NCBI GenBank assembly: GCA_034664545.1
Contig: JAXDHK010000340.1
Span: 1-38,371, forward strand
Source of the DNA: Solirubrobacteraceae bacterium
GTDB lineage: Bacteria > Actinomycetota > Thermoleophilia > Solirubrobacterales > Solirubrobacteraceae
DNA length: 38,371 nucleotides
Direction of reading: 5' to 3'
Within the stretch, counting starts at the first letter, position 1. Every line of letters starts with the position of its first letter. Below, in pieces: positions 6,370-38,371 of the stretch. A model generated the notes under the pieces. That model saw only the letters and a list, made by a program, of their open reading frames with translations, did no database searches and was not told the DNA's origin. Both the position numbers and the translations under genes were made by a program.

Positions 6370-8728
6370 GCTCCCCCGACCCGAGGCCTCACCCGCCCCG
6401 AACGCCGCCGCCCAGGGGCGACTCGTCGCCTGGCTGGCCGACGATCGGGCCCAGCGGACGATCGCCATGCCCGCCGGCGACGTCACCGTCGTCTCGGAGC
6501 GGGGCGGCGGAAGCTCGGAGTACCGCTACGACCCCCGGGGGGACCTGGCGGAGCTGGTCGAGCCCGACGGGGGGCGGGTCGGCTTCGAGTACGACGACCG
6601 GCGTCGCCTCGGGGCCGTGGTCCGCCGGGGGGTCCGGACCGTTTTCAGCTATGACGACCACGACCGGTTGGCCGGGGTCGACGACGGCGCCGAGACCGGC
6701 GTCCGCCGCTTCCACCGGGACGCCGACGGGCGCCTGGTCGTCGTCCGCCAGGCCGACGGCACGACCCTGGCCTTCGTCTACGACGAGGCCGGCCGAGTCC
6801 GGGAGGGGCGGACCCCGACCGTGGCGACCGTCCACGACTACGACGACGTCGGGCGAATCACCGGGGTTCGCCAGACGCTCGACGGGGTGACGCTCGAGCT
6901 CCGACTCGACTTCGCCGTGGACGGCAGGCTGGCCGCGATGCGCGTGCCCGGGGCGAGCGTCCGCTACGCCTGGGACGAACGCGGGCGCCCGGCCTCGATC
7001 GGGCTCGGCGGCGACGCCGCGACGGCGCCCCTGGCCCGGTTCGCCTACGACGAGACCCGGCGGGAGACGGCGGTCACCCTCGCGAACGGGCTCGTCGAGC
7101 GGACCTGGGCCGACCCGGTCGACGGGCGCCTGCTCGAACGCCAGCTTCGGCGGGGCGACGGGCTCGTGCTTGGACGCCGGCACCGCCATGATCCGGCCGG
7201 TCGGATCATCGGGGACGGGACCCGGCGGTACGGCTACGACGACCTCGGGCGCCTGACCCGGGTCGAGGATGACCGAACCCGCGAGGTCTGGCGGTACGGC
7301 TACGACGCCCGGGACAACCGCGTCGAGACGACGGGACCCGAAACGGCCGGGGCGCGGTGCGAACACGACGAGGACGAGCTCCTGATGGTCCGAGCCGACG
7401 CGGGCGACACGCCCTACGAGCACGACTCCGCCGGCCGGCGGACCCACGCCGGCGCCGCCGACGGGGCGCGCACCTACCGCTACGACGCGGCCGGCGAGCT
7501 GCGTGAGGTTCTCCGAGACGGCGCTCTCGTGGCCCACCTGAGCTACGACCACAAGGGGCGGCTCGCCGCCGTCCGCCGGGCGGCACCCGTCACCGGGGCC
7601 GGGTCCCCGGAGGCCTACGGGCCCGCGGCGAGGACCGAGCGCTACCTCTACGGGCCCGACGACGAGCTCGTCGCGGTCACCGACGGGGCCGGGAGCCCGC
7701 TGCGCGTGATCGTCCGGACTCCACTCGGACCGATAGCCGAGATCCGGGACCCCGGCGGCCCCGACCAGGCCATCACGTTCCTCCACCTCGACCACCAGGG
7801 GACCTCCCACCTGGTCACCGACGAGACCGGCGGGGTGGCCGGGGAGTGGCGGTTCTGCCCGTTCGGGACCCCGTCCGGGGCGGGCCGGACCCGCCCCCGA
7901 TTCGCCGGTCGCGACTGGCACGCCGACCTCGGTCTCTACCGGTTCGGGGCGCGGTGGTATGACCCGGTGACGGGCCGCTTCCTCACGCCCGACTCGTTCA
8001 CCGGGGCCCCCGACGACGAGCGCCTGGTCCACCCGCTCGTCCCCGGGTCGGTCCAGCCCCTCGCCCGGGCCGAGCTCCTCGGAGGATGGCTCCAGCGGCC
8101 GCGGATCCGCAACCGGTACGCGTTCTGCGCCAACGACCCGGTCAACCGGATCGACCCCAACGGCCACTGGTCGTTCGGAGCGGCGCTGATGACCCTGCTC
8201 GGCGCGGTCTGGGCGCTCCCGAACACGATCTTCGGCCTCCTGCTCGAGATCACGTGCCTGATCGGCGAGGTCGTCCGGTGGGTGGTCTCGGCGCTCTCGA
8301 GCGGCGAGACCGACTGGGAATCGCCGGAATTCGGGGCGGCGGCCTCGAAGCGGCTGAACGCGTTCGGGCTCGTGTTCTCCGGGGGGTGGCTCGGGTCGTT
8401 CGCCAGCGTCCCGGCGCTCACCTTCGGGAACGTGTTCTTCGTCTACAAGAAGTGGGAGTCGCTGCCTGAGTTCAGCGCCCCGGGCGAGGTCCACCCGGCT
8501 GCCTACGGGGGGAAGGTGGCGATCCCGCGCCACGACACCCTCTACGAGCACGAGCTGTTCCACACCAAGCAGCAGGGTCGGTTCGGGCCGTTCTTCCACC
8601 TCGGGCTCCCCCTGTTCGGGGTCTACGAGTGGGACCTGCTGCTCAACGGACGGGCCGGGAGCGTGCTCGAGCAGGAGGCCCGCGACCACTCGGGGCGGCC
8701 GGCCCCGGCCGCGCCGGCGGGGGGCTGA
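6347..8728 (+). CDS. RHS/YD-repeat toxin with C-terminal HExxH (zincin-like) domain
   Basis: It has many YD repeats (YRYDPRGDL, FEYDDRRRL, FSYDDHDRL, YGYDDLGRL, YRYDAAGEL). It also has the RHS core end motif GLYRFGARWYDPVTGRFLTPDSF...NDPVNRIDPNGHW. A roughly 185-aa tail follows with hydrophobic segments and YEHELFHTKQQ. The GTG 6347 start overlaps the upstream ORF by 23 nt; in-frame ATG 6467 is an alternative start. Confidence 0.85.
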   Translation: MLRPSPPELPRPEASPAPNAAAQGRLVAWLADDRAQRTIAMPAGDVTVVSERGGGSSEYRYDPRGDLAELVEPDGGRVGFEYDDRRRLGAVVRRGVRTVFSYDDHDRLAGVDDGAETGVRRFHRDADGRLVVVRQADGTTLAFVYDEAGRVREGRTPTVATVHDYDDVGRITGVRQTLDGVTLELRLDFAVDGRLAAMRVPGASVRYAWDERGRPASIGLGGDAATAPLARFAYDETRRETAVTLANGLVERTWADPVDGRLLERQLRRGDGLVLGRRHRHDPAGRIIGDGTRRYGYDDLGRLTRVEDDRTREVWRYGYDARDNRVETTGPETAGARCEHDEDELLMVRADAGDTPYEHDSAGRRTHAGAADGARTYRYDAAGELREVLRDGALVAHLSYDHKGRLAAVRRAAPVTGAGSPEAYGPAARTERYLYGPDDELVAVTDGAGSPLRVIVRTPLGPIAEIRDPGGPDQAITFLHLDHQGTSHLVTDETGGVAGEWRFCPFGTPSGAGRTRPRFAGRDWHADLGLYRFGARWYDPVTGRFLTPDSFTGAPDDERLVHPLVPGSVQPLARAELLGGWLQRPRIRNRYAFCANDPVNRIDPNGHWSFGAALMTLLGAVWALPNTIFGLLLEITCLIGEVVRWVVSALSSGETDWESPEFGAAASKRLNAFGLVFSGGWLGSFASVPALTFGNVFFVYKKWESLPEFSAPGEVHPAAYGGKVAIPRHDTLYEHELFHTKQQGRFGPFFHLGLPLFGVYEWDLLLNGRAGSVLEQEARDHSGRPAPAAPAGG

Positions 8729-8730
8729 CC

Positions 8731-9804
8731 ATGGCCGACACGACCCACCCGACGTTCACGCTGACCATCGGCTCAGTCGTCGCGACGACCGACCGCCCGA
8801 TGGCCGGCCCGACCCGCCTGGTGCTCGAGCGCGACATGGACATCGCGGCCGACGGCCTCCGGGTCCACCTGTCCGATCGGTCGGGGATCGGCCTCGACGA
8901 CCCGGTGGGGCTCGAGCTCGGGTACGGGGGGTCGGAGTCGGCGGTGTTCACCGGGACGGTCGCCCGGCTGCGTCCGGCGACGGGCGGGGTCGAGGTCTGG
9001 GCCCTCGGGGGGCTGCACCTCCTGCTCGACCTCCACTGCGGGGAGGTCTACCAGGAGCAGTCGGCCGGGGCGATCGCCCACGACCTGTTCGGGCGGGCCG
9101 GGCTCTCGGCCGGGACGGTCGACGATGGGCCGGACATCTCGCGCTTCGCGGTCGACGTCCGCTCGAGCGGCTACGTCCACCTGGCGGGCCTGGCCCAACG
9201 CCTGGGCTACGAGCTCTACGCGGACATCGCGGGCAAGGCGATGTTCCATGCCCTGGGCGCGACGGCGGGCCTCGACTCGGGAGGGGGTGGTTTTGGAGCG
9301 GTGGTCGGAGCGTCGGCCCCCGTCCCGGGCGACGTGGCGGCTGCGGGCCGGGGAGGCGAGGTCCGCTACGGGAGCGACCTGCTCGGGCTCGACGCGACCG
9401 ACGCTCCGGTGATCTGGGAGTCGGTCGACGTCGGCGGCGAGAGCCCGGTGTCCGGCCAGGGCGAGAAGACGGCGTCGTGGCTGACGACCAGGGACGCCGA
9501 CTACCGGGGGTCGTCCGGATCGGGCGGGCGCCACCTCCTGGTGATCGACCCGGCGGCCCGGACCAAGGATCTCGCCGATCGGTTCGCCGCCGGGCGGCGG
9601 GCGGCCGGGGCCCGCCGGGCGCACGAGGTCCGGATCAGCGTCCTCGGCCGCCCCGGGGTCGATCTCGGCGACACGCTCTCGGTCGCCGACCACCCCGACG
9701 CCCTGGCGAATGGGAGCGGCTACGTCCGGGCGCTCCGCCACCGGGTCGGCGAAGGCGTCGGCTTCGTCACCGACATCCGCCTGGCCCTGGAGCCGGCGGC
9801 ATGA
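8731..9804 (+). CDS. gpD-like (late control D / baseplate hub) protein, cluster 1
   Basis: ATG 8731 lies 2 nt after the RHS stop. The N-terminal pattern (TFTLTIGS...LVLERDMDIAADGLRVHL...LELGYGGSESAVFTGTV) parallels the cluster-2 gpD-like protein 29238-30470. It sits directly upstream of the spike gene. Confidence 0.65.
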   Translation: MADTTHPTFTLTIGSVVATTDRPMAGPTRLVLERDMDIAADGLRVHLSDRSGIGLDDPVGLELGYGGSESAVFTGTVARLRPATGGVEVWALGGLHLLLDLHCGEVYQEQSAGAIAHDLFGRAGLSAGTVDDGPDISRFAVDVRSSGYVHLAGLAQRLGYELYADIAGKAMFHALGATAGLDSGGGGFGAVVGASAPVPGDVAAAGRGGEVRYGSDLLGLDATDAPVIWESVDVGGESPVSGQGEKTASWLTTRDADYRGSSGSGGRHLLVIDPAARTKDLADRFAAGRRAAGARRAHEVRISVLGRPGVDLGDTLSVADHPDALANGSGYVRALRHRVGEGVGFVTDIRLALEPAA

Positions 9805-10487
9805 CCAGCGCGATGGAGATCGTCCGCCAGGTGGTTCGCGAGGAGCTCGCCCAGCGGGCCGACGGCCTGCTCGGGGTGGTCACGGCGACCTACCCGCACG
9901 CGGCCGAGGACGACGACAACAACCTCGAGGTCGACGTCCGCCTCAAGCACGAGGACCTCGAGCTCCGCCGGGTCCCGGTCGGGGTCTCCCACGTCGGCGC
10001 GGCCGCCCCGCCCCGGGTCGGCGAGCTCGTGCTCGTCCGCCTGGTCGACGGCCAGATCAACCAGCCGCTGGTGACCAGCCGCTTCTACCACGCCGACGAG
10101 CGGCCGCCGCTCGCCCAGGAGAACGAGGTCCTGCTCGAGCACCGGGTGCCCGACGGGACGCTCAACCATCTCCGGTTCATGGCCGACGGGACGATGCTCC
10201 TCCAGCGGGACGTGACCAAGCCCAGGGACGGGACCGAGGCGAAGACGACGATCAGGATCGACGGGGGGACCGGGGACGTCCGGATCGAGGCGGGCGCGGA
10301 CATCGTCGTCGAGCTGAAGAACGGCTCGGAGATCAGCATCACGAGCAAGGACAAGCCGGTGAGCGTGAAGTGCAGGACGCTCGCGATCGAGGGGAACGTC
10401 GAGATCACCGGCGACCTGACCGTCCAGTCCTCGGCCGGGGGCAGCCCGGGGACGAAGATCAGCGGCCACACGATCACGGGGATGTGA
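9801..10487 (+). CDS. baseplate spike protein (gpV / gp5 OB-fold plus beta-helix)
   Basis: ATGA overlap (9801/9804). The sequence RRVPVGVSHVGAAAPPRVGELVLVRLVDGQINQPLVTSRFY is a gpV/VgrG OB-fold signature. The C-terminus has repetitive beta-strand segments (DVRIEAGADIVVELKNGSEISITSKDKPVSVKCRTLAIEGNVEITGDLTV). Confidence 0.7.
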   Translation: MTSAMEIVRQVVREELAQRADGLLGVVTATYPHAAEDDDNNLEVDVRLKHEDLELRRVPVGVSHVGAAAPPRVGELVLVRLVDGQINQPLVTSRFYHADERPPLAQENEVLLEHRVPDGTLNHLRFMADGTMLLQRDVTKPRDGTEAKTTIRIDGGTGDVRIEAGADIVVELKNGSEISITSKDKPVSVKCRTLAIEGNVEITGDLTVQSSAGGSPGTKISGHTITGM

Positions 10488-10903
10488 TGGGGGACCTCGT
10501 GCTCAAGGGGATGCTCAGCCTCGGGGGTACCCTCGACCTCGCCCCCAAGCCTCCGGGCGGGAAGGTGATGGTCGAGGCGGTCGAGGTGCTGGTCGAGGGA
10601 GCCGAGGGCATGGGCACCGTGCCCGTGCTCCTTCCCGGGCCGCCCCCTCCCCCGGCCGATCAGGGCCTCGGCGTGAAGGTGCCGGTTTCGTTCAACAAGA
10701 CGGTGACCGCCGGCGGTGCGGCGATCGTCACCCAGGGGATGTGCTTCCAGGGAAGCAGCGGGACCTGGCCGGGGATCGTCCTGCCGAGCCTCGGCAACAC
10801 GACGGTCATGGCCAACGGGATCCCGATGAACCTGGTCGGCGATCAGGCGACCATCCTCCCGACCGGCGCTCCCGCGGTTCTCGACAAGTCGGGGCAGAAA
10901 TGA
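10487..10903 (+). CDS. PAAR-like spike-tip protein with N-terminal extension
   Basis: TGATG overlap (10485-10489). TVTAGGAAIVTQG and TVMANGIPMNLVGDQAT resemble the two PAAR motifs of 31128-31406 (TVLIGGLPAAVVGD, VLIGGRPALRVGDVAG). It lies immediately after the spike gene. Confidence 0.4.
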   Translation: MGDLVLKGMLSLGGTLDLAPKPPGGKVMVEAVEVLVEGAEGMGTVPVLLPGPPPPPADQGLGVKVPVSFNKTVTAGGAAIVTQGMCFQGSSGTWPGIVLPSLGNTTVMANGIPMNLVGDQATILPTGAPAVLDKSGQK

Positions 10904-15459: not shown

Positions 15460-15951
15460 TTGCTTGAACGTACGGACATGCGCGGCGCGGTAGTGGTCGA
15501 GCTTTCGGACCGCTCGGGGACGGTAGTCCATAGGCAGCGTCAGGGGAACCGGATCGTCCTCAGCGGAAGGCGCCTGGTCGCGGACATGTTCGCGGGGACG
15601 GGGTCAGGGGGCACACCGACCAAGGTCACCCACGTCGGCGTCGGGACGGACGGGACCCCTCCGGCCGACGGCCAGACCGCGCTGCTCGCCGAGCGGAGCC
15701 CGCGGAGTCCGATCAGCCAGGTCGACGTCCAGAACGTGGTCGAGGGACAGGACTCCGACACGGTCCAGAGGTCGCGCGTATCGCTCACTGCGGTCTTTGA
15801 TTTCGACCAGGCGAACGGGACCGAGCCGCTCCGCGAGGCGGCCGTGTTCACCGCCGACGCGGACGGCGTCATGTACAACCGCGTGCTGCTCGATTCCGTC
15901 AGCAAGACAAACGCGTTCAAGCTAACCGTCCTCTGGGACATTGTTTTCTGA
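15460..15951 (+). CDS. hypothetical tail/fibre-region protein
   Basis: TTG 15460 lies 5-10 nt downstream of GAGGAGAG; ATG 15478 is an alternative start. 163 aa and beta-rich (VGVGTDGTPPADGQTALLAE...KLTVLWDIVF). It lies in the distal tail region after gpI. Confidence 0.45.
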   Translation: MLERTDMRGAVVVELSDRSGTVVHRQRQGNRIVLSGRRLVADMFAGTGSGGTPTKVTHVGVGTDGTPPADGQTALLAERSPRSPISQVDVQNVVEGQDSDTVQRSRVSLTAVFDFDQANGTEPLREAAVFTADADGVMYNRVLLDSVSKTNAFKLTVLWDIVF

Positions 15952-20687: not shown

Positions 20688-20802
20688 ACATTCTGACACG
20701 TTGCCTGGGGCCCTTTCGCCCGTGCGGTAGGAGGGTTATGATCAGTGGGTCCAGTCAGTCCCCATGTGCCACGGCGGCGCGTGCCCGCGGCGGAGGCCCC
20801 GG

Positions 20803-21462
20803 ATGCCAATCAGCATTGTCGTCGTCGTCGAGGTGCGCCTCTACCGGGAGGCCGTCGTCCGGGCGCTGAGTGACCAGGACGACCTGCGTCTCCTGGGCGA
20901 GGGCGACTCCGCCCGCGTGGCGCTGATCGAGATCGCGCGTTCCCAGCCCGACGTCGTGCTGCTCGACCTCGGGATCCCCCATGCCCTCGATGCCGTGCGA
21001 CAGGCGCGTGCCGTCGCGCCCGAGACGAAGATAGTGGCACTCGGCTTCGGCGGCACCGATGCCGAAGTGGTGGCCGCGGCCGAGGCCGGGCTCGGTGGAT
21101 ACATCGGAGTCCACCAACCACTCGACGATGTCATCACCGCCATCCGCGGCGTCGTGCGCGGCGAGGCGCCCTGTGACGGGCTGATCGCCGCGGCCCTCCT
21201 CCGGCGGGTGGCCGCCCGGGCCGGGGAGGTCGATTCCGCTCCGGTCCTGGCCGAGCTCACCTCACGCGAGCGCCGCATCCTCGAGCTCCTCGCCCGCGGG
21301 CTCTCGAACAAGGAGATCGCCAGCGAGCTCGTGATCGGCCTGGCGACGGTGAAGACCCACGTCCACGCCATCCTCCGCAAGCTCGAGGTGAGTCGGCGCG
21401 GCGCGGCCGCCGACGTGTTCAGGCGCGCCCAGGTGATCGGCGCCGGCTCCCGGGCCGCCTAG
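20803..21462 (+). CDS. LuxR/NarL-family response regulator, atypical receiver domain
   Basis: ATG 20803 lies 6 nt after GGAGG (20792-20796). The receiver-like N-terminus has the acceptor Asp in PDVVLLDLGIP. The C-terminal LuxR HTH reads LTSRERRILELLARGLSNKEIASELVIGLATVKTHVHAILRKL. Confidence 0.85.
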   Translation: MPISIVVVVEVRLYREAVVRALSDQDDLRLLGEGDSARVALIEIARSQPDVVLLDLGIPHALDAVRQARAVAPETKIVALGFGGTDAEVVAAAEAGLGGYIGVHQPLDDVITAIRGVVRGEAPCDGLIAAALLRRVAARAGEVDSAPVLAELTSRERRILELLARGLSNKEIASELVIGLATVKTHVHAILRKLEVSRRGAAADVFRRAQVIGAGSRAA

Positions 21463-21992: not shown

Positions 21993-23992
21993 TGGAGGCC
22001 GGCGCCGTCACCGCCCCGGTCACCCCCCTGCTCGAATGGGCGGCGGCGGTACTCGCCGGCGCGCTCGACGCCGCCGGAGAGCTGCCGGCCGCGGCCGGCG
22101 GGATCGAGGCCCTCCGAGGGCTCGTGCTCTCGCCCGAGTCCGTCCGCGACCGGCTCCGGAGCGCCCGCTCCGCGCCGGTTGCCGCCTCTGCGCCACCGCC
22201 CCTCCCGGACTCGCTGCTCGGGCCCCTGCGCCGGCTCGGGGCCGACGCCTTCGAGCTGGCGGCGATCGGTCTCGCCGTCGCCGTCGAGCTCGACCCGGCG
22301 GCCGCCCGCGCCGTGGCCTACCTCCACGACGACATGCGACTTCGCCGCCTCTCCGTCGACCTCCTCGCCGCCCTCTGCGCCGATCTGGCCGGCGACTGGA
22401 CGGCCGGGAGGCGATGCCTGGCCCCGTCCTCCCGGCTGGTGACCCGCGGACTCCTCGAGGTCACTGCCGCCGGGGGCGACGCCGAGGTCCGGGCGACCCC
22501 GGCGCTCGCCGGTCACGTCGTCGGGATGCACCACCTCGCCCCCGAGCTCGTCGCGGCGCTCGGCACGGCGGCCGCCATCCCGGTCGCGACCCATCATCCG
22601 GCGGTGACGCGCTGGGCAGAGGCCCCCGATCAGGCCGTTCTCCACGTGCACGGAGCCGGTCCCGACGTTCTCGGTGCCCGCGTCGCGGCCTCCCTCGACC
22701 GGGCGGGCCGTCCCGCCGTCGAGGTCGACCTGGCCGCCCTCGACGAGGCGCACGCGCGCGGCCTCTCCGCCCACTGCCTGCTCGGCGATCTCGCGGCCAT
22801 GCTCGTGCTCCCGCGCGAGGGCCACCCCGCGCTCGGATCCCTGCTCGGCTCGATCGACGCGGTGTGCCTCGTGGACCAGGGACTCGCCCTCTGGCAGTCC
22901 CCCTCGGCGAGCACGCTCCGCCCGGTGGCCTCCGTGGAGCTGGCCTCACTCGAGGTCTCCGAACGCGCAGCGGCGGTCGCCGAGGGGCTCCGCGACGGCG
23001 GCATCCGTCTCGCCGACCCCGACGGAGCGCTTCCCTTCGCCCGGCGCTACCGCCACGGCCCCGACGCGATCGCCAAGGTCGCCGGCGCGACCCGGGCGCG
23101 CCTGCGCGCCGAGGAGCGCTCGACGGCGCGCGACACCGACATCCTCGCCGTGGCGGCGGTGCTCGCCGGCGCCCCGCTGCGCGACCTCGCCACCCGGGTG
23201 GACCGGGTCGCCGGTTGGGCCGACCTGGCCGTGCCCGAACCGATCGCCGACGAGCTTCGGGAGCTCTGCGCCCGGGTCGACGTCCGAGACGCCGTCCTCG
23301 GCGACCGGGGCTACGCGCGCACGCTCGGCACCGCCCGGGGGGTGAGCGCCCTGTTCGCCGGGCCGAGCGGGGCCGGCAAGACGCTCGCCGCCTCGGTCGT
23401 GGCCTGCGAGCTCGGGCTCGCCCTCTACCGCGTCGACCTCGCCCGGATCGTCTCGAAGTACATCGGCGAGACCGAGCGCAACCTCGAAGCCGTCTTCGCC
23501 GCCGCCGAGTCGACCGACGTCGTGCTCCTGTTCGACGAGGCCGATGCCCTGTTCGGCCGGCGCTCCGAGGTCCACGACGCCCACGACCGGTACGCCAACC
23601 TCGAGGTCGCCTACCTGCTCCAGCGCATGGAGGTCTACGACGGCGTGGCGATCCTCTCGACCAACCTCCTGCGCAACCTCGACGAGGCCTTCACCCGGCG
23701 CCTGGACTTCCGTGTCCTCTTCCCGTTTCCCGCCGCGGCCGAGCGTCGGCGGATCTGGCGCCTGATGTGGCCGCCCGGCGAGCGACTCGCCGACGACGTC
23801 GACCTCGACGCGCTCGCCCTCGAGCACGAGCTCTCGGGCGGGATGATCCGCAACGCCGCGCTCGCCGCCGCCCACCTGGCCGAGACCGAGCGGGCGATGG
23901 TCTCGAGTCGCCATCTCGAGCACGCGATCGCCCGCGAGCACGACAAGCTCGGGCACCTCCCGCGCATCTCGACCGCGGAGCCCGGGCGATGA
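21992..23992 (+). CDS. eCIS AAA+ ATPase (Afp15/Pvc15-like)
   Basis: Walker A GPSGAGKTLAA, Walker B VVLLFDEADALFG, and a CDC48-like C-terminus. The N-terminal LRRLGADAFELAAIGLAVAVELDPAAARAVAYLHDDMRLRRLSVDLL is typical of Afp15-type ATPases. The start was chosen at the TGATG overlap with the upstream ORF. Confidence 0.9.
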   Translation: MEAGAVTAPVTPLLEWAAAVLAGALDAAGELPAAAGGIEALRGLVLSPESVRDRLRSARSAPVAASAPPPLPDSLLGPLRRLGADAFELAAIGLAVAVELDPAAARAVAYLHDDMRLRRLSVDLLAALCADLAGDWTAGRRCLAPSSRLVTRGLLEVTAAGGDAEVRATPALAGHVVGMHHLAPELVAALGTAAAIPVATHHPAVTRWAEAPDQAVLHVHGAGPDVLGARVAASLDRAGRPAVEVDLAALDEAHARGLSAHCLLGDLAAMLVLPREGHPALGSLLGSIDAVCLVDQGLALWQSPSASTLRPVASVELASLEVSERAAAVAEGLRDGGIRLADPDGALPFARRYRHGPDAIAKVAGATRARLRAEERSTARDTDILAVAAVLAGAPLRDLATRVDRVAGWADLAVPEPIADELRELCARVDVRDAVLGDRGYARTLGTARGVSALFAGPSGAGKTLAASVVACELGLALYRVDLARIVSKYIGETERNLEAVFAAAESTDVVLLFDEADALFGRRSEVHDAHDRYANLEVAYLLQRMEVYDGVAILSTNLLRNLDEAFTRRLDFRVLFPFPAAAERRRIWRLMWPPGERLADDVDLDALALEHELSGGMIRNAALAAAHLAETERAMVSSRHLEHAIAREHDKLGHLPRISTAEPGR

Positions 23993-24879
23993 TCGGGGCC
24001 GCCGACGCCATCCTCCGCCGGGTCCTGACCGACGGCGTGCCCGGCATGACCTCCGACCGGATCTCCTTCCAACCGCCCGACGAGGTCTGGCGAACCCGCG
24101 TCGGCGCGAGCAAGGGCGTCAGCATCGACGTCTACCTGGCCGAGATCGACGAGGATCGCGACCTGCGCACCAGCGCCGTCGACCGGGTGATCGACGGCGG
24201 GATCGCCCGCGACCGCCGGGCACCTGAGCGGGTGCGCCTGACCTACCTGATCTCGGCCTGGAACGCCGCCAAGGACTCGGTGGCGACCGCCGCCACCGAG
24301 GCCGAGCACGACACCCTGTCCTTCGTCCTTCAGGCGCTGCTCCGGGCGTCCCCGCTCAACGCGTCACGGATCCTGCCCCCGACGGCCCTCGCCAGCGTCC
24401 CGGTCGGGATGCGCGAAACGGACCTTCCGACGAGGATCGCCGTCTCCGAGGCCCTCGACAAGCTCAGCCACTTCTGGGGCACCATGGGCGCCACCCACCC
24501 GCACAAGCCGGTGATACCCGTCCTCGTGACGGTGCCCGTGACCTACCCGGAGACGATCACCGACGGGGTCGTGTTCACGATCGACACCGGCCTCGGCTCC
24601 GAGCGCCTGATCGAGGTCGGCGGGCACGTGTACGACGCGGTCGGACCCAACGCCGCCCATCCCCGTCCGGTCGCCGACGCCGCGGTCGTGTTCACCACGC
24701 TCGCCGGCCGCCGAGCGGCCGGTACCCGGGCCGCGAGCGACGGCCGCTTCGTCGTCGACGGCCTGACTCCCGGCACCTATCACCTGAGCTTCACGGCCGA
24801 CGGCTACGCAGCTCCCCCGCCGGTTCCCATAACCCTGCCCACACCCTCCGGCGGCTCCCTCGAGCTGCTGTTCACCTGA
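23989..24879 (+). CDS. DUF4255 tail cap/terminator protein (Afp16-like) with C-terminal CarboxypepD_reg-like beta-sandwich
   Basis: ATGA overlap (23989/23992). The N-terminus ILRRVLTDGVPG...ISFQPPDE...SIDVYLAEIDEDRDLR and RLTYLISAW fit DUF4255. The C-terminal SDGRFVVDGLTPGTYHLSFTADGY is a carboxypeptidase-regulatory-like motif. Confidence 0.75.
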   Translation: MIGAADAILRRVLTDGVPGMTSDRISFQPPDEVWRTRVGASKGVSIDVYLAEIDEDRDLRTSAVDRVIDGGIARDRRAPERVRLTYLISAWNAAKDSVATAATEAEHDTLSFVLQALLRASPLNASRILPPTALASVPVGMRETDLPTRIAVSEALDKLSHFWGTMGATHPHKPVIPVLVTVPVTYPETITDGVVFTIDTGLGSERLIEVGGHVYDAVGPNAAHPRPVADAAVVFTTLAGRRAAGTRAASDGRFVVDGLTPGTYHLSFTADGYAAPPPVPITLPTPSGGSLELLFT

Positions 24880-24893
24880 AGCCAAGGAGAGCC

Positions 24894-26879
24894 ATGTCCG
24901 TCCAGGTGTCCTACCCCGGCGTCTACATCGAGGAGTTCGAGCCCGCCGCCCCGATCGAGGGTGTGTCCACCAGCCACGCCGCCTTCATCGGCATCGCCGA
25001 GCGGGGACCGAGCAACGTGCCGACGCTCGTCACCAGCCTGGACGACTTCACGCGCGTCTTCGGCGGCCCCGTGGACGGAGCAGTGCCCTACTACCTGCCC
25101 ACGAGCGCCGAGGGCTTCTTCCGCAACGGGGGAAGCGTCCTCTACGCGCTGCGCGTGTCGACGGCGGCCAACGCCTCCAAATCGTTCCTCTCCCGGGGCG
25201 CGAGCCCGCCGCCCGCCGCGCCGGTCCTCACGGCGACCGCGCTGACCGAGGGCGGCGCCGGCAACGGCATCGCGGTCACCGCGGCGGACTCGTCGGCGCT
25301 CGCCAAGGCCCTGGCGGCGATCAAGCCCACCCCGCCGCCCAAGCCGACGCTCGCGCTCGCCAACGCCTCGACGCCGGCGAGCGCCCTCGACCCCACCGGG
25401 CGGATCCTGACCGTGGCCCAGAGCTCGAGCTTCGCACCCGGCGACAACGTCCTCGTCGTCGACGCCACCAACAAGCGTCCGGGCACGATCAGCGCCGTTC
25501 CCGACTCCACGACGATCGTCCTCGGTGCGGGGCTGACCGGACCGCTCGCCGCCGGATCGACGGTGAAGCTCGCCGACCTCGCCCTCGGCGACACGCTCAT
25601 CCGCCTCACCGTGCCGCTGGGGCTGAACCTCCGCCAGGCGGTCCCGGCCGGGACGCTCGTGGCGATCGGAGCGACGGGATCGACCGAGGTCGCGGTCGTC
25701 GCCGCCGTCACCGCCGACTCGGTCACCCTGACCCGAGGGCTGAGCGTCGCCCACGCGCGCAACACGGCCGAGCTGGCCTCGGCGGAGTTCGATCTCACGG
25801 TGACGGGCACCGGCGGCGAGGTCGAGACGTTCACCTTGCTCTCGACCTCGCCGAACCATCCGCGCTACTGGAAGACGGCGACCGACTCGAGCGCGCTCGT
25901 GAGCTTCTCGCGACCGGACACGCTCCCGCCGGGCGCCGCGCCGGACCCCCGGCCCAAGCCCGCCACGATCACCCTCGCCGGGGCGGCCAACGACGATCCC
26001 GCCGCCGCGTGGAACACGCAGCTCGCGGCCAACATCCACGCCTACCTCGACGCGCTCGCCCGGATCGACGACATCAGCATCGTCGCCGTTCCGGGATGCA
26101 CCGAGCAGGGGGTGCAGCAGGCGCTCGTCGAGCACTGCGAGTCCCTCTGGGACCGCTTCGCCATCCTCGACGCCGTCAAGGGCGCCGACCTGACCGCTGT
26201 CCGCGCCCAGCGAGCCACCCTGACGGGCACGCTCGACAAGGGCTTCGGCGCGCTCTACCACCCCTGGATCCAGGTGCGCGACTCCGCCAAGCAGGCCATC
26301 GTCGACCATCCGCCGTCCGGGCACCTCGCCGGGATCTACGCGAAGATCGACACGACGCGAGGGGTCCACAACGCCCCGGCCAACCTCGGCATCGCCACCG
26401 CGCTCGGCGTGACCCAGCGCCTGACGAACGCCGACCAGAGCGTCGTGAACCTCGAGGGCGTGAACCTCATCCGAATCCTCCCCGGTCGCGGCGTCCCCGT
26501 GGTCTGGGGCGCGCGGACCACCGCGGGCGACCGCAACTGGCAGTACGTCAACATCCGCCGGCTGTTCCTCTTCCTCGAGGAGTCGATCCAGCAGGGCCTC
26601 CAGCCGAACGTCTTCCTGCCCAACGACCTCGCCCTCTGGGAGCGGGTCAAGCGCACGCTCAACGAGTTCCTCGGCCGGGTCTGGCGGGACGGCGCGCTGT
26701 TCGGCGCCACCGCCAAGGAGGCCTACTACGTCCGCGTCGACGAGGCGCTCAACCCCCCGAGCACGCGCAAGCTCGGGCGGCTGAACATCGAGATCGGCGT
26801 GCAGCCGGTGTACCCGGCCGAGTTCATCGTCGTCCGGATCGGCATCTGGGACGGCGGCAGCGACATCAGCGAGAGCTAG
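24894..26879 (+). CDS. contractile tail sheath protein (Afp2-4/Pvc2-like)
   Basis: AAGGAG RBS upstream. The N-terminus MSVQVSYPGVYIEEFEP...STSHAAFIGIAERGP is classical for sheath proteins. It also has YHPWIQV, NAPAN and GVNLIRILPGRGVPVWGARTT motifs. 661 aa. Confidence 0.92.
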   Translation: MSVQVSYPGVYIEEFEPAAPIEGVSTSHAAFIGIAERGPSNVPTLVTSLDDFTRVFGGPVDGAVPYYLPTSAEGFFRNGGSVLYALRVSTAANASKSFLSRGASPPPAAPVLTATALTEGGAGNGIAVTAADSSALAKALAAIKPTPPPKPTLALANASTPASALDPTGRILTVAQSSSFAPGDNVLVVDATNKRPGTISAVPDSTTIVLGAGLTGPLAAGSTVKLADLALGDTLIRLTVPLGLNLRQAVPAGTLVAIGATGSTEVAVVAAVTADSVTLTRGLSVAHARNTAELASAEFDLTVTGTGGEVETFTLLSTSPNHPRYWKTATDSSALVSFSRPDTLPPGAAPDPRPKPATITLAGAANDDPAAAWNTQLAANIHAYLDALARIDDISIVAVPGCTEQGVQQALVEHCESLWDRFAILDAVKGADLTAVRAQRATLTGTLDKGFGALYHPWIQVRDSAKQAIVDHPPSGHLAGIYAKIDTTRGVHNAPANLGIATALGVTQRLTNADQSVVNLEGVNLIRILPGRGVPVVWGARTTAGDRNWQYVNIRRLFLFLEESIQQGLQPNVFLPNDLALWERVKRTLNEFLGRVWRDGALFGATAKEAYYVRVDEALNPPSTRKLGRLNIEIGVQPVYPAEFIVVRIGIWDGGSDISES

Positions 26880-26888
26880 GAGACAGCC

Positions 26889-27326
26889 ATGACCACTGGG
26901 GTGCTGGTGGACCCATACCCGGGTTACAACTTCCACGTCGAGATCGACGGGATCAGCCGCGGGGCCTTCGAGGAGGTGACGGGCCTGGACTCGACCGTCG
27001 ACGTGGTCGAGTACCGGGAGGGCGGCTGGAACACCACGCCGCACAAGTTCCCGGGCCAGACCAAGCACGCGAACATCGTGCTCAAGCACGGGATGGCGAG
27101 CGACCGCGACCTCACCAACTGGCACCAGAACGTCGTCGAGGGCACGATCGACCGCCGGAACGGGTCGGTGATCCTCCTGGACCGCCGGGGAACCGAGGTC
27201 GCCAGATGGAACTTCATCCGGGCCTGGCCGACCAAGTACACCGCTCCGAGCTTCAACGCCAAGACGAGCGACATCGCGATCGAGACCCTCGAGCTGGCCC
27301 ACGAGGGCCTCGAGCGGGTGAGCTGA
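26889..27326 (+). CDS. tail tube protein (T4 gp19-like, Afp1/5-like)
   Basis: AGGAGA RBS upstream. DPYPGYNFHVEIDGISRGAFEEVTGLDSTVDVVEYREGG...KFPGQTKHANIVLKHG is the conserved eCIS/gp19 tube signature. 145 aa. Confidence 0.9.
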   Translation: MTTGVLVDPYPGYNFHVEIDGISRGAFEEVTGLDSTVDVVEYREGGWNTTPHKFPGQTKHANIVLKHGMASDRDLTNWHQNVVEGTIDRRNGSVILLDRRGTEVARWNFIRAWPTKYTAPSFNAKTSDIAIETLELAHEGLERVS

Positions 27327-27327
27327 G

Positions 27328-27711
27328 ATGTTCGAGGTCGAGCACCACTTCACCCTGCCGATGGGCCTGATCGACCGGGACGGGACGCTGCACCGCGACG
27401 GCGTCATGCGCCTGGCCACCGCGGCCGACGAGATCCTCCCCCTCCAGGACCCCCGCGTCCAGCGCAACCCCGCCTACCTGGCCCTGATCCTGCTCTCCCG
27501 GGTCGTGCTCCGCATCGGCGGCATCGAGGACGTCAACCCGCACACCATGGAGGGGCTGTTCGCCGCCGACCTCGCCCACCTCCAGGATCTCTACAACGCG
27601 ATCAACCGCATCGGCGGGAGCGAGCGCGTCTCCTGCCCGCACTGCGAGCGCGACTTCGAACTGGAGGTCGACCGCCTGGGGGGATCGCAGGCTATCCCCT
27701 CGACCGGGTGA
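27328..27711 (+). CDS. tail assembly chaperone-like protein (zero-frame product)
   Basis: ATG 27328 lies 1 nt after the tube stop; 127 aa. It sits between the tube and the tape-measure candidate. The core resembles the cluster-1 chaperone 684-1199. The slippery heptamer lies 25 nt before its stop. Confidence 0.65.
   Translation: MFEVEHHFTLPMGLIDRDGTLHRDGVMRLATAADEILPLQDPRVQRNPAYLALILLSRVVLRIGGIEDVNPHTMEGLFAADLAHLQDLYNAINRIGGSERVSCPHCERDFELEVDRLGGSQAIPSTG
27678..27684 (+). promoter_or_regulatory. candidate -1 programmed frameshift slippery heptamer G_GGG_GGA
   Basis: In the zero frame of 27328-27711 the codons are ctG GGG GGA, which is X_XXY_YYZ. The -1 frame is open from here through 27845 and encodes ...IAGYPLDRVNEEMAYLAYHLHW... 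Confidence 0.45.
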
Positions 27712-27725
27712 ACGAGGAGATGGCC
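27690..27725 (+). promoter_or_regulatory. stem-loop 5 nt downstream of the slippery site (possible frameshift stimulator)
   Basis: GGCTATCCCCTCG (27690-27702) pairs with CGAGGAGATGGCC (27713-27725). That gives 13 positions: 11 Watson-Crick pairs, 1 G:U wobble and 1 C:A mismatch, with a 10-nt loop. The 3' arm covers ATG 27720 and the adjacent GAGGAG. Confidence 0.4.
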
Positions 27726-27848
27726 TATCTCGCCTATCACCTGCACTGGTCCCACGCCGAGCTCATGCACCTCGACCACCGCAGCCGCCGCGGCTGGGTC
27801 GAGCAGGTCTCGGCGCTGAACGAGCGTGTCTCCGCGGGGGGCGTGTGA
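27720..27848 (+). CDS. small DUF6760-like eCIS protein segment (independent 42-aa ORF or -1 frame extension of the chaperone)
   Basis: MAYLAYHLHWSHAELMHLDHRSRRGWVEQVSALNE matches the small conserved protein I recall from eCIS loci. The same frame upstream encodes the family-typical YPLDRVNEE, but there is no ATG/GTG/TTG before GTG 27708. GAGGAG abuts ATG 27720 with no spacer. Confidence 0.55.
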   Translation: MAYLAYHLHWSHAELMHLDHRSRRGWVEQVSALNERVSAGGV

Positions 27849-28552
27849 CCCGCCCGCCGCGCATCGGACTCGCCGGCCAGGCCGCCGCCCGGGCGACGGC
27901 GCGGCGGCGAACCCGGTGCGGCGCGACGGTGGCCGGGGGCCGCCTGGAGGTCCCGGCGCCCCCCCTCGCCGCGAGCCTGCTGACGCGGCGGGCGCGGCTG
28001 GCGGCGCCCGGCGCCTGGGCCGTGCGCATCGAGCTGCGCCTCGCCCCGGTCACCGTGGTCCGGTCTGAGGCGTTGGCCGCCCCCGCGGCTTCGATCCTCG
28101 TGCCTGCCCCCCACGGAGACGCCCGACTCATCCCCGTGACCCCGGGCGCCAGCCCGGACCCCCCCGCGATGACGCTCTCGCGGGAGACGATCCGCGAGCG
28201 GATCGAGCGCACCGTCGAGCGGCTGGTCGCACGCGGCCGGCGCGAGGAGCCGCCTCGCCGCCTGGACGCCCCGGCCGTGCGCCTCGGCCCCGACCGGGCG
28301 GCCACGCCCGCGATGGCGCCGCCGGTGTTCACGAAGCTCGTCCTGCCCGTGCTCCCGGTCGCCGCCCGCGCCGCCGAGGCTGCCGGCTCGGACGGCGGGA
28401 GCGCGCCGCCCGCCGTGCTCGCGCCGCCCGCGGTGCCGGCAACCGGTCCGCTCCCGCAGGCCGCGCAGATCCCGAGGCTCGTCGAGGAGATCGTCGGTGA
28501 GCTCGAACGCCGCACCCGAGCCCAGCGCGAGCGCCGAGGGTGGCTGGGATGA
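27845..28552 (+). CDS. Pro/Ala/Arg-rich protein; tape-measure candidate of cluster 2
   Basis: GTGA overlap (27845/27848), 235 aa, high GC3. It sits between the chaperone and the LysM tube-initiator. Its C-terminal IPRLVEEIVGELERR is shared with 1196-2173. Confidence 0.45.
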   Translation: MTRPPRIGLAGQAAARATARRRTRCGATVAGGRLEVPAPPLAASLLTRRARLAAPGAWAVRIELRLAPVTVVRSEALAAPAASILVPAPHGDARLIPVTPGASPDPPAMTLSRETIRERIERTVERLVARGRREEPPRRLDAPAVRLGPDRAATPAMAPPVFTKLVLPVLPVAARAAEAAGSDGGSAPPAVLAPPAVPATGPLPQAAQIPRLVEEIVGELERRTRAQRERRGWLG

Positions 28553-29241
28553 GCGGGACGCTCGAGAACGCCCTGCTGGTGAACACGGTGACCAACGCCT
28601 TCGTGTCGGTGCAGTTCAACCCCGAGGACTACACGATCAACCGGGAGGTCCAGTACGCCCAGATCGGGGTCCCCGGCCTCTCGGCCCCGGTCGTCCAATT
28701 CGTCCACGGCAACGCGCAGACGCTCGAGATGGAGCTCTTCGTCGACACCCTGGAGAAGAGCTCCCAGGCCGAGGCCGGCAGCGACGTCCGCGAGCTGGTC
28801 AAGAAGATCACCTCGTTGATGGACATCGAGCCGACGGTGCACGCCCCGCCGCCGGTGCTCTTCACCTGGGGCAGCCTGAGCTTCAGCTGCGTGCTCCAGC
28901 GCGCCTCGCAGAAGTTCATCATGTTCAAGCCGGACGGGACTCCGGTGCGGGCAAAGGTGCAGGTGACGTTCAGCGAGTTCTGCAACGTCGAGCTCGAGGC
29001 CAAGGAGGTCAAGCGCCAGACCGCCGACTACTCGAAGCTCCACACGGTGTGCGCCGGCGACTCGCTGGCGCTGATCGCGTGGCGCGAGTACGGATACCCG
29101 ACCGCGTGGCGGCCGATCGCCCTGCGCAACGGTATCGACGACCCGCGACGCCTGCGGACGGGCGATGTGCTCGTGCTCCCGCGCCTGCCCTACCGAGACC
29201 GGGACACCGGGACGCTCTACGACGCCGGAGCGATCGCGTGA
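28549..29241 (+). CDS. LysM-domain tube-initiator/baseplate protein (Afp7-like)
   Basis: ATGA overlap (28549/28552); GTG 28540 is an alternative start. The N-terminus FVSVQFNPEDYTINREVQYAQIGVPGLSAPVVQFVHGNAQTLEMELF is the CIS tube-like domain. The C-terminal LysM reads HTVCAGDSLALIAWREYGYPTAWRPIALRNGIDDPRRLRTGDVLVLP. Confidence 0.85.
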   Translation: MSGTLENALLVNTVTNAFVSVQFNPEDYTINREVQYAQIGVPGLSAPVVQFVHGNAQTLEMELFVDTLEKSSQAEAGSDVRELVKKITSLMDIEPTVHAPPPVLFTWGSLSFSCVLQRASQKFIMFKPDGTPVRAKVQVTFSEFCNVELEAKEVKRQTADYSKLHTVCAGDSLALIAWREYGYPTAWRPIALRNGIDDPRRLRTGDVLVLPRLPYRDRDTGTLYDAGAIA

Positions 29242-30470
29242 GCGCTCCGCCCCGCTACGCCCCGGAGATCCGCATCGCCTTCGACCGCGTCCCGGCGCCG
29301 GCCGAGCTGCGCGGCTCGGTGACATCGGTCAGCTGTCAGACCGGCCTCGGCGGCTCCGACCGGCTCGAGCTCTCGCTCGTCAACGAGCGGTTGCGCTGGC
29401 TGGACGACCCGCTGCTGCGCCTCGGAGCCGAGATCTCGTTCGCCATCGGGTACGCACCCGACTCGCCGACCCAGATCTTCGTCGGGGAGGTGACGGGCAC
29501 CGAGGCGGCGTTCCCGAGCGACGGAGTACCTACGCTCCGCGTCGTCGCCCAGGACCGGCGCACGCGCCTCGCCGAGTCCTCACCGACCCGGCTGTTCGCG
29601 GTCCCCATCCCCGGGTACGGGGTACAGCCGCTCCCGGATCTCGGCGTGGCGCCGCTGATCGGGCTCGAGCACCAGCTCGTCACCTTCGTCGACCCGCTCG
29701 CCGCCTTCCTCTCCGCCGCGCTCAGCCTCGCCGACCTCGACGCCACGAGTGAGGACCCGGGCGGACGCCAGAAGCTCGCGCGCAAGCAGATCGGCCAGAG
29801 CTCGCTCGACTTCCTCGGGAAGATCGCGGCCGAGAACGGCTGGGAGGTGCTCATGGAGCACGGCCCGATCGCCGGCGGCTGGGTGATCCGCCTGATGTCC
29901 CCGGCCAGCGTCCTGGCCCCAGAGGAGACGCTGCGGTACGGTCAATCGCTGATCGACTTCACTCCGAGGCTCTCGACCGTCGGACAGGTCGCGGCCGTCT
30001 CGGTCAAGGTCTGGCGTCCCGAGATCAAGCTCGAGCTCACCGTGACCGTCGGCTACGACTGGGAGAAGCGGGCGCTCAGGATCGAGATCACCCCGGGCTT
30101 CCTCGACAAGGTGGCCAAGGGCGCCAAGGCCGGGTCGGAGACCAAGACCCTTCTCGTCAACGAGCCGGTCACCGTGGCCACGGCCCCGCGGATGATCCTC
30201 TCGAAGCTCCTGCCCAAGCTCAACCGACGGCTGACGGCGAGCGGCTCGTGCGTCGGGACCCCGACGATCGCCGCCGGCGAAGTGCTCCGGATCGAGGGGG
30301 TCGGCGAGCAGTTCGGAGGGCTGTATCGGGTCACCCAGGCGCGTCACTCCTTCGACGGCGGGGGCTACCGCACCAGTTTCGACGTGCGCAAGGAGATCTG
30401 GTTCGACCCGATCCCCCTCACCGCCCAGGGCGCCGTCCGCCTCATCCCGAACCCGCTTCCCGTGGCCTGA
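29238..30470 (+). CDS. gpD-like (late control D) baseplate hub protein, cluster 2
   Basis: GTGA overlap (29238/29241), 410 aa. It has IFVGEVTGTEAAFPSDGVPTLRVVAQDRRTRL, SSLDFLGKIAAENGWEV and the C-terminal GLYRVTQARHSFDGGGYRTSFDVRKE, typical of the gpD family. Confidence 0.8.
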   Translation: MSAPPRYAPEIRIAFDRVPAPAELRGSVTSVSCQTGLGGSDRLELSLVNERLRWLDDPLLRLGAEISFAIGYAPDSPTQIFVGEVTGTEAAFPSDGVPTLRVVAQDRRTRLAESSPTRLFAVPIPGYGVQPLPDLGVAPLIGLEHQLVTFVDPLAAFLSAALSLADLDATSEDPGGRQKLARKQIGQSSLDFLGKIAAENGWEVLMEHGPIAGGWVIRLMSPASVLAPEETLRYGQSLIDFTPRLSTVGQVAAVSVKVWRPEIKLELTVTVGYDWEKRALRIEITPGFLDKVAKGAKAGSETKTLLVNEPVTVATAPRMILSKLLPKLNRRLTASGSCVGTPTIAAGEVLRIEGVGEQFGGLYRVTQARHSFDGGGYRTSFDVRKEIWFDPIPLTAQGAVRLIPNPLPVA

Positions 30471-30480
30471 AGGAGGACCC

Positions 30481-31128: not shown

Positions 31129-31406
31129 TGCCGCCCGCCGCCCGCATGGCCGACCTCACCGGCCACCCGGGGATGGTGACCGGGCCCGGGGTGGCGACCG
31201 TGCTCATCGGCGGCCTCCCCGCGGCGGTCGTCGGCGACCTGCACTCCTGCGCGTTCCCGCCGCCCGCGCCGCATCCCCCGACCCCGTTCGCGGTCGGTTC
31301 GGCGAGCGTCCTCATCGGCGGAAGGCCCGCCCTGCGGGTCGGCGACGTCGCCGGGTGCGGCGCGCCGATCGTCACGGGCGCCTTCACGGTGATCGTCGGG
31401 GGCTGA
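31128..31406 (+). CDS. PAAR-domain spike tip protein
   Basis: TGATG overlap (31126-31130), 92 aa. The two PAAR-type motifs are TVLIGGLPAAVVGDLHSC and SVLIGGRPALRVGDVAGCGAPIV. Confidence 0.85.
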   Translation: MPPAARMADLTGHPGMVTGPGVATVLIGGLPAAVVGDLHSCAFPPPAPHPPTPFAVGSASVLIGGRPALRVGDVAGCGAPIVTGAFTVIVGG

Positions 31407-31409
31407 GCG

Positions 31410-36031: not shown

Positions 36032-36034
36032 CCG

Positions 36035-38272: not shown

Positions 38273-38371
38273 GCACCACCCCGGCGAGCTTCGTCCCCGA
38301 CCGGGTCCAGCCGGTGGCCGAGGCCCGGCTCGCGGCGAGCGACCTGCGCGACCTCCTGCGGCTGGCCGACC
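38269..38371 (+). CDS. start of next baseplate/tail gene (3' end outside window)
   Basis: GTGA overlap (38269/38272). The frame stays open to the window edge (MSTTPASFVPDRVQPVAEARLAASDLRDLLRLAD...). By synteny a gpI-like tail protein is expected here, but the fragment is too short to assign. Confidence 0.35.
   Translation, partial: MSTTPASFVPDRVQPVAEARLAASDLRDLLRLAD

Follow-up and report, generated by a model that had tools for sequence, protein, structure and literature searches.

The 38,371-nucleotide stretch of Solirubrobacteraceae DNA analysed here (the window; GenBank assembly GCA_034664545.1, contig JAXDHK010000340.1, positions 1 to 38,371) contains, within a phage-tail-like gene cluster, a gene for an RHS protein whose C-terminal tail carries an HExxH motif and which is followed by a structural gene rather than an immunity gene. 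The locus raises the question of what such a tail does and why no immunity gene accompanies it. An earlier note, made from the sequence alone, had likened the tail to a DUF4157-type metallopeptidase and had explained the missing immunity gene by a non-self, possibly eukaryotic, target or by a latent toxin. The analysis led to a different answer. The tail is not a polymorphic toxin; in the reading that we favour, to which we give a probability of about 0.5, it is a constant C-terminal zincin-like module, combined with a hydrophobic helix of about 40 residues, on an RHS protein that has been fixed in one contractile-injection lineage.

Relatives of the tail were sought by a homologue search over 5.8 billion proteins and by an exhaustive profile search over 1.84 billion cluster representatives. 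The first search returned 28 close homologues that were 55-66% identical to the tail; in many of them the end of an RHS core could be seen ahead of the matching part. The 70 matches of the profile search fell into three groups, namely RHS proteins with the domain at their very end, RHS proteins in which hundreds of residues follow it, and small stand-alone proteins of 130-147 amino acids (aa). Comparison of the tail with these small HExxHxxQ...E proteins gave an hhalign value of 99.5% (E 3.4e-22, 121 columns). The small family itself, whose typical proteins have 125-150 aa, had more than 5,400 members at E≤0.001; the 120 best-listed members were all short (about 125-230 aa), contained no Pfam domain and were named only as hypothetical proteins. 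Judged by sequence, the small stand-alone proteins are true homologues of the tail, and the tail is a member of an unannotated family.

The residues that define this family are all present in the window. In 65 small proteins the invariant positions were the W and P of a W-x-L-P-x-T helix, the T and G of a beta-hairpin, the H, E, H and Q of HExxHxxQ, further G and Y residues, and the E and A of a C-terminal ExxA (alignment A5); the tail holds every one of them, in WALPNT, TFGNV, HELFHTKQ and LEQEA. Since H, E, H and Q do not vary among the 65 small homologues, the HExxH of the tail is not a chance match. The same four residues were nearly invariant among the RHS tails, as was the E of LEQEA in alignment A3, and YEHELRH was found in all 32 genome loci with a readable motif region except one Chthonomonadaceae contig (L001 = L035). 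The position of HELFH, 8549-8563, was as previously given, and the full HExxHxxQ...E signature was present; the earlier description of the motif as HExxHxxQQ did not hold to its last letter, the second Q not being conserved (family consensus HTNQY).

The small proteins, for example P0086 and P0141 of Neorhodopirellula lusitana, have the same order of hydrophobic helix, strands, HExxHxxQ, GPFF and ExxA. They differ in that they are encoded by stand-alone genes amid unrelated housekeeping-type neighbours (two neighbourhoods were examined and were uninformative), in that they are without two insertions present in the RHS tails, and in that the helix past HExxH is more hydrophobic. P0141 lies at locus L040, another member is P0134 (L041), and Planctomycetota were frequent among the few named members. 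When the small-family profile was searched against the PDB, YizA alone was returned at E 2.1, which was not meaningful.

A structural model of the tail was consistent with these motifs. The AlphaFold2 (AF2) model (mean predicted local distance difference test score, pLDDT, 84.9) showed a long helix at aa 607-650, four strands within aa 661-699 (including tail residues 70-76, 88-91 and 94-97), a helix at 728-749 that bears HELFH, and two more helices, the last of which (773-782) bears E775. The AF2 model of a small stand-alone protein (pLDDT 91) had the same order of elements. This order, in which the HExxH helix comes after a beta-sheet and the E lies on a later helix, fits the zincin layout and makes a zincin fold for the tail plausible at the level of models. 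Searched against BFVD, the structure matched one unnamed 116-aa protein (E 5.6e-4) and, more weakly, a SprT-like protein (E 0.9). Two long hydrophobic stretches had been reported for the tail; both are present, but only the first is transmembrane-like by hydropathy and modelled as a helix, the second being modelled as beta-strands. Over the whole 793-aa protein, Kyte-Doolittle values of 1.5 or more were reached solely at aa 608-650, the segment that carries WALPNT (8210-8227). The tail has one membrane-like segment, not two.

The earlier likening to DUF4157 was a reasonable lead, with the signature and a weak profile signal in common, but the relationship proved to be more distant than had been suggested. 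This family, formerly the PVC-metallopeptidase and now DUF4157/eCIS_core, has an HExxHxxQ-E signature with three strands and three helices, and was described as a constant, probably self-releasing peptidase located N-terminal to variable toxins (PMC3482391, Zhang et al. 2012). It has since been recognised as a core domain of extracellular contractile injection systems (eCIS), with its role unexplained (PMC8213781, Geller et al. 2021). For comparison, 35 real members were aligned, which had been retrieved with a DUF4157-like query scoring 125 bits against PF13699. DUF4157 was the nearest Pfam family of the small homologues, with an eCIS_core match below threshold in three of six (hmmscan, E about 0.1; 13 bits, where the cut-off is 22), and the small-family profile matched the 35 members with an hhalign value of 83.7% (E 8e-6) over 42 columns only, comprising the hairpin and HExxHxxQ. 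The RHS-tail profile compared directly with DUF4157 gave 24% over 19 columns with the real alignment and 8% with a consensus sequence. Because the direct comparison was weak, the tie between the tail and DUF4157 was kept as a distant one, by way of the small family, and membership was rejected, PF13699 giving no match to the tail at E≤1. Neither did Tox-MPTase, also named in the earlier note, or any other toxin metallopeptidase family of Pfam match the 191-aa tail at E≤1.

The features shared by the tail and DUF4157 are the HExxHxxQ...E signature and a beta-hairpin (A-x-T-x-G...) just before the HExxH helix; in the window the conserved A-x-T-F-G-N-V hairpin (8414-8443) aligned by hhalign with the AYTVGxDVVF of DUF4157. 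Both are also linked to contractile injection and frequently have no immunity gene, and in some proteins of each the constant domain stands ahead of variable ones, a layout seen in the extended homologues of the tail, the window protein itself stopping at the domain. The differences are that DUF4157 has an FGxDFSxVRVH N-terminal region where the tail has the hydrophobic W-x-L-P-N-T helix, and that the Glu follows after about 19-27 residues, compared with 36 in the tail. Of the 48 DUF4157 proteins with enough sequence beyond HExxHxxQ, seven had an ExEA motif there. Furthermore, the tail forms one protein with an RHS core, and its gene belongs to a structural operon instead of lying at the 3' end among effectors.

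The genomic setting of the tail was highly constant. The first 15-17 kb of the window form the phage-tail-like cluster, in the order tube, two small genes, a DNA_circ_N-like gene, a 1156-aa tape-measure-like gene, RHS, hub, spike, PAAR-like, Ig-like, gp25, baseplate J, wedge-like and further conserved genes. The end of the tape-measure open reading frame (ORF) overlaps the GTG start of the RHS gene by 23 nt, and syntenic homologues of the tape measure (30-37% identity) were present at all related loci. With the tail profile, 32 loci were identified among 185,579 species genomes. The carriers were Rubrobacter, Chloroflexota, Myxococcota, Acidobacteriota, Actinomycetota, several Burkholderiales including Accumulibacter, KSB1, Syntrophobacteraceae, Armatimonadota and Cyanobacteria, and the cultured carriers included Pyxidicoccus caerfyrddinensis, Ideonella azotifigens, Actinopolymorpha pittospori, Humibacillus xanthopallidus, Azohydromonas aeria and Pelomonas candidula. 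Overall, more than 40 loci, representing at least 10 phyla, had the RHS-plus-tail gene between tape measure and hub. Wherever a locus was long enough to judge, the genes ran tube ... tape measure, RHS core, tail, hub, spike, as they also did in metagenome contigs, one distant homologue and two IMG/VR contigs. Compared with the window, the tails of related loci were 53-65% identical and the RHS cores 35-49%.

A more distant relative of the cluster on an IMG/VR contig (L046 4357-9850; tube 58% identical) had a 1206-aa tape measure followed by the hub, with no RHS gene between them. Because this relative passes directly from tape measure to hub, the RHS gene is a cargo that was added to the cluster and fixed in one lineage.

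The resemblance of the cluster to phage tails raised the possibility that it represents the tail genes of a prophage, either functional or recently decayed, in which the RHS protein would serve as a tail-associated lysin or ejection protein for phage entry. The sheath matched the phage sheath FI protein, the wedge matched phage wedge proteins and there were PHROG baseplate matches, so that the structural proteins are closer to phage tails than to solved eCIS; the interval between tape measure and hub is where tail lysins occur, and three IMG/VR contigs hold relatives of the cluster, two of them with RHS. However, the 45.6-kb source contig, from a Joint Genome Institute (JGI) metagenome, has the sheath directly upstream of the window; the part before the sheath contains regulators and a GH65 gene but neither head nor terminase genes. 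The tail domain was present in 0 of 50,697 cultured-phage records, and the matches among 2.9 million viral contigs numbered just three. When the whole RHS protein was compared with phages by tblastn, only generic RHS repeats such as those of the APSE toxin cassettes were found and no homologue of the tail; a tblastn search of plasmids with the tail found none. A prophage origin is accordingly considered very unlikely.

The absence of an immunity gene was borne out. In about 22 of 33 loci the RHS ORF ended right past the domain, and in most of these (about 20 loci) the hub followed within 4-26 nt. In the window the RHS stop codon (TGA, 8726-8728) is followed after 2 nt by the next ATG (8731), and this gene encodes the structural hub, as the earlier note had held, on the basis of synteny and a Phage_GPD match below threshold. 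No immunity ORF was found in the window, nor in most related loci. The G+C content at third codon positions (GC3) was 0.96 in the RHS frame only, and ORFs in other frames over the tail varied in position between loci. Third-position identity at conserved codons was flat along the tail (0.53-0.59), which indicates that no overlapping gene is hidden in it. Long antisense ORFs, for example one of 766 aa opposite the RHS gene (6389-8689, minus strand), are typical of DNA of 71% GC and, because a GC3 of 0.96 marks the RHS frame, were regarded as artefacts. Many loci also had an antisense ORF close to where the tail begins. It was likewise rejected as a candidate, since its extent was variable and the synonymous sites of the tail were unconstrained, and it was attributed to conserved GC-rich coding.

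These data bear on the alternative that the protein is a classical interbacterial polymorphic RHS toxin for which the immunity gene had been missed, being overlapping, antisense or elsewhere. The antisense ORFs that overlap the region are one argument for it, and an Imm8-domain gene about 4 kb upstream of the sheath, outside the window, is another. The latter encodes a 94-aa protein (L037 3830-4114, minus strand) and is near genes for a HemolysinCabind protein and a PadR regulator, with no evident tie to the RHS gene. The shifting positions of the other-frame ORFs, the confinement of high GC3 to the RHS frame, the synonymous sites without extra constraint and the closeness of the hub all argue against a missed gene. 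The tail is conserved rather than hypervariable, no immunity gene lies directly downstream, and this alternative is highly improbable. The missing immunity gene is probably explained by the tail being a constant, highly conserved part of the machine, rather than by an exotic target.

In the remaining loci the RHS ORF extends past the domain, by 385-393 aa in Rubrobacter, by 562 aa in one Solirubrobacteraceae locus, by 603 aa in Spirulina, and by 818-861 aa in three Actinomycetota loci, where a separate 442-aa gene with a rubredoxin module follows. The recognisable domains in these extensions were PG_binding_1, a C39-like peptidase and a reprolysin-type metallopeptidase (P0092). Only the reprolysin form had an extra gene between RHS and hub, encoding a 174-aa HEAT-repeat (HEAT_2) protein (L048/L049 7001-11812); this gene occupies the place expected for an immunity gene, and together with the C-terminal reprolysin-like (M12) peptidase it forms a candidate toxin-immunity pair. 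The C-terminal extensions of P0037 and P0031 gave no convincing match in the PDB, nor did that of P0037 and the extra L016 protein in Pfam; they may contain SLT-like and CHAP-like motifs.

One module of about 440 aa recurred, either fused after the HExxH domain (Rubrobacter L005/L006/L009, P0074) or as a separate gene before the hub (L016 13160-14484; also L028 and L034). Its motifs comprise a Cys motif (NDCCSFVE or NNCSTMVE) and a His motif (GGHTFLIV or GGHNFFIV), with rubredoxin in some copies, and by these motifs it looks like a thiol peptidase or amidase. Pfam matched the rubredoxin part only, and a PDB search with the fused Rubrobacter-type copy (P0031) gave no convincing match.

The protein that carries the tail is a genuine RHS protein. 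The 793-aa length (for the GTG-start ORF) and the lack of an N-terminal PAAR domain had been noted before and were upheld; in Pfam and NCBIfam, no PAAR, prePAAR, signal peptide or N-terminal trafficking domain was found. In the NCBIfam search the protein matched TIGR01643 (YD_repeat_2x, 1.5e-21) and TIGR03696 (Rhs_assc_core, 4e-15), the latter over aa 505-552, and the core was similar in sequence to the solved type VI secretion system (T6SS) Rhs cocoons 8h8a and 7q97, and also to 8cp6 and 6l7i. WYDPVTGRF and NDPVNRIDPNGHW (7937-8170) were conserved among homologues, and NDPVNxxDPNGHWSFG was near-invariant in homologues. The core terminus DPNGHW (aa 603-608) was located at 8153-8170 and left 185 aa after it, exactly as had been described. 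From these motifs, an autoproteolytic cut directly past W608 is predicted. The JGI gene call starts at ATG 6467 and gives 753 aa, compared with 793 aa from GTG 6347. Because a helix conserved in orthologues, RLVAWLADDRAQR, precedes that ATG, a start upstream of it is likelier; judging from this conservation, translation probably begins at GTG 6347, which overlaps the stop of the tape measure, or at a codon between it and 6467.

Taken together, the reading that we favour proposes the following sequence of events. The RHS core would cut itself past DPNGHW, and the freed module, a probable payload or pre-toxin, would be retained by the half-size RHS shell, at the spike/PAAR tip or close to it. 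Because the RHS protein has no PAAR of its own, it probably docks on the spike and the PAAR-like tip protein, which are the likely mounting point. Contraction of the sheath would deliver the module, the hydrophobic helix would engage the membrane of the target envelope, and the zincin site would cleave a conserved envelope substrate or, in those relatives that have them, free the C-terminal add-on domains. No immunity gene would be needed, since the module would not be a polymorphic toxin acting in the producer cytoplasm. Such a role accounts for the high conservation of the tail, the missing immunity gene and the position beside the tape measure, as well as for the peptidoglycan-related add-ons and the survival of catalytically dead copies.

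A broader version of this proposal, which we put forward tentatively and consider possible but doubtful, is that the loci represent an undescribed multi-phylum family of tail-only contractile particles with an obligatory half-size RHS shell. The membrane-active helix and the zincin-like domain, the latter from an unannotated superfamily, would then be a novel type of pre-toxin or penetration device that opens or crosses the envelope, and a docking point for grafted toxins, immunity being gained only when such a toxin is added.

Several observations weigh against the favoured reading. The 191-aa tail was unmatched in Pfam and NCBIfam at E≤1 and among PDB chains at E≤10, and Foldseek searches of the PDB gave no significant match, the best E value being 0.5 with the model of the tail and 1.2 with that of the small protein; among zincins, M1 aminopeptidases and anthrax lethal factor came up at E 2-8 only. 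The RHS core has only about 560 aa, roughly half of the about 1,000 aa in solved Rhs cocoons, and since extensions of up to about 860 aa exceed what such a core can hold, encapsulation is doubtful. A typical eCIS ATPase was not seen in the annotated parts of the cluster, and an envelope target is suggested by the domain types in relatives, not by the window protein. Finally, active-site residues had been lost in several homologues: the motif was HMxxH in P0047, P0048, P0049 and P0053, RExxR in P0020 and P0043, YALWF in P0054 and EKLLRH in P0092. In the P0020 locus the RHS gene was split into two ORFs, while the dead copies P0049 (L047 7001-9370) and P0092 (L048/L049) sit in fully intact loci. 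The tails that have lost active-site residues look like pseudo-enzyme versions of the domain, and because catalytic residues have been lost in intact loci, peptidase activity cannot be all that is conserved: the domain has a further conserved role that is independent of catalysis.

The same losses underlie the alternative that catalysis is not the main function of the domain. It would instead be a plug or adaptor of structural kind, or serve the RHS-spike complex in membrane insertion or translocation, and HExxH would be a relic that often still binds metal. At least three independent losses are seen (E to M; both H to R; YALWF and EKLLRH), with the rest of the domain and the locus intact, and the most widely retained feature is the W-x-L-P-x-T hydrophobic helix, which persists even in the most divergent RHS homologues. 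However, H, E, H, Q and E do not vary among the 65 small homologues, and the large majority of RHS tails retain them; this conservation points to selection on the active site in most lineages, that of the window included. We therefore regard a mainly non-catalytic domain as unlikely.

The proposal closest to the earlier note is that the tail is itself the toxin, a DUF4157-type metallopeptidase directed at a non-self, possibly eukaryotic, cell, its substrate being absent from the producer or the enzyme being held latent in the RHS shell. In accordance with this proposal, HExxHxxQ...E was intact in the window and in 31 of 33 genome loci, and in the roughly 22 loci that have no further domain the zincin-like tail is the only payload. 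There is also precedent, in that the PVC-metallopeptidase occasionally occurs as a toxin C-terminal to RHS repeats, and toxins of Photorhabdus virulence cassettes (PVC) often have no immunity genes (PMC3482391). However, the tail is not a DUF4157 domain by Pfam, and its conservation exceeds that of the RHS core, whereas a diversifying toxin would show the reverse. At least two intact loci retain copies with a dead catalytic site, and because catalysis is dispensable in several intact loci the idea that the toxin is the peptidase is weakened. Nothing that was found points to eukaryotes; the extra domains of relatives bind peptidoglycan or resemble its enzymes. This explanation is accordingly held to be rather unlikely, and the constant, envelope-directed module remains our preferred account of the tail.

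The coordinates of the RHS gene, the parts of its product and the adjoining structural genes are collected in Table 1.

Table 1. Positions in the window of the RHS gene, its recognised segments and the flanking tail genes.
Feature	Position	Strand	Basis or remarks
Tape-measure-like protein, 1156 aa	2899..6369	+	Long coiled-coil ORF; weak Tape_meas_lam_C and Baculo_PEP_C matches
RHS/YD-repeat protein, 793 aa	6347..8728	+	GTG start; RHS_repeat PF05593 9.7e-28, 7 stretches
N-terminal helix RLVAWLADDRAQR, conserved in orthologues	6419..6457	+	Orthologue N-termini P0031 RRVEAWLLHDRRRRE, P0050 RRLQAWQARDEAAR
C-terminal RHS core with both RHS aspartyl autoprotease motifs	7937..8170	+	ARWYDPVTGRFLTPD 7937-7993; NRYAFCANDPVNRIDPNGHW 8111-8170
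Hydrophobic helix (stretch 1), aa 608-650, with W-x-L-P-N-T motif	8168..8296	+	AF2 helix; Kyte-Doolittle ≥1.5
Stretch 2, aa 672-700, modelled as beta-strands	8360..8446	+	Hydropathy never reaches 1.5; AF2 strands
HELFHTKQ, aa 735-742, HExxHxxQ in predicted helix	8549..8572	+	Candidate zinc ligands H735 and H739; candidate catalytic E736
LEQEA, aa 774-778, in last helix	8666..8680	+	E775 (8669-8671), candidate third zinc ligand
Baseplate hub (gpD-like)	8731..9804	+	Phage_GPD E 0.005, below threshold; syntenic with hubs of related loci
Spike	9801..10487	+	Phage_base_V-like, E 0.004
Small PAAR-like protein	10484..10903	+	PAAR_motif E 0.09; L048 homologue matches PAAR_motif and Tox-PAAR-like

Other genes of the window were noted in passing. 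At the end of the cluster, a 163-aa protein (15460-15951) that is conserved in most related loci matched phrog_5417 (function unknown) at 1e-19. Another contractile-injection cluster, distinct from the first, occupies 22036-38371 and starts about 7 kb downstream, so that two tail-like systems stand side by side. It includes a Pvc16_N domain (tail terminator/cap) in the ORF at 22036-24879, a sheath at 24894-26879, and two very large Baseplate_J ORFs at 31355-36031 (1558 aa) and 36035-38272 (745 aa). Between the two clusters lies a response regulator with a LuxR/GerE DNA-binding domain (20764-21462); regulators with a GerE domain have been reported to adjoin eCIS operons (PMC8213781, Geller et al.).

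Some elements of this picture are already known, since RHS arrays with a PVC-type metallopeptidase at their end, and PVC-delivered toxins that contain RHS repeats, have been described (PMC3482391). In the searchable literature, the coverage of which is incomplete, no described tailocin or contractile injection system operon with an RHS gene between tape measure and hub was found, nor any account of a conserved tail in a large zincin-like family or of the pattern of add-on toxins. If the favoured reading is correct, RHS proteins would also be fixed, conserved parts of phage-tail-like particles, beyond their role as swappable toxin carriers in T6SS and Tc systems. It would give a name to a large zincin-like family, with thousands of unannotated members, that is distantly tied to the DUF4157 of extracellular injection systems. 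It would also explain injection effectors without immunity genes, the constant module being no self-toxin and an immunity-like gene appearing only where a classical toxin has been added. The cultured carriers make the tail-RHS cluster experimentally accessible.

Compared with known systems, the RHS protein shares with T6SS Rhs effectors and TcC the YD repeats, the Rhs_assc_core, the DPxGxW junction, and the presence of spike and PAAR-like genes nearby. It is unlike them in its short core, its lack of a PAAR/prePAAR N-terminus and of an immunity gene, its conserved C-terminal domain, and its location in a phage-tail-like cluster rather than a T6SS. The cluster has the same order of sheath, tube, tape measure, hub (gpD), spike (gpV), gp25, gpJ and gpI-like genes as R-type tailocins and Mu- and P2-like tails; a DNA_circ_N-like protein is also shared with these, and on the source contig the cluster is likewise tail-only. 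A functional counterpart of the tail is the C-terminus of pb2, the tape measure of phage T5, which combines 46 hydrophobic residues with a muralytic metallopeptidase motif and is released by cleavage into the periplasm (PMC10038345). The likeness is one of functional analogy alone; T5 is a siphovirus, and its module lies within the tape measure itself. In each, a hydrophobic stretch of about 40-46 residues, predicted in the case of the tail to insert into a membrane, accompanies a metallopeptidase motif, and the tape-measure gene or its neighbour encodes both; the separation by proteolysis and dispatch to the target envelope that are described for pb2 are what we propose for the RHS tail.

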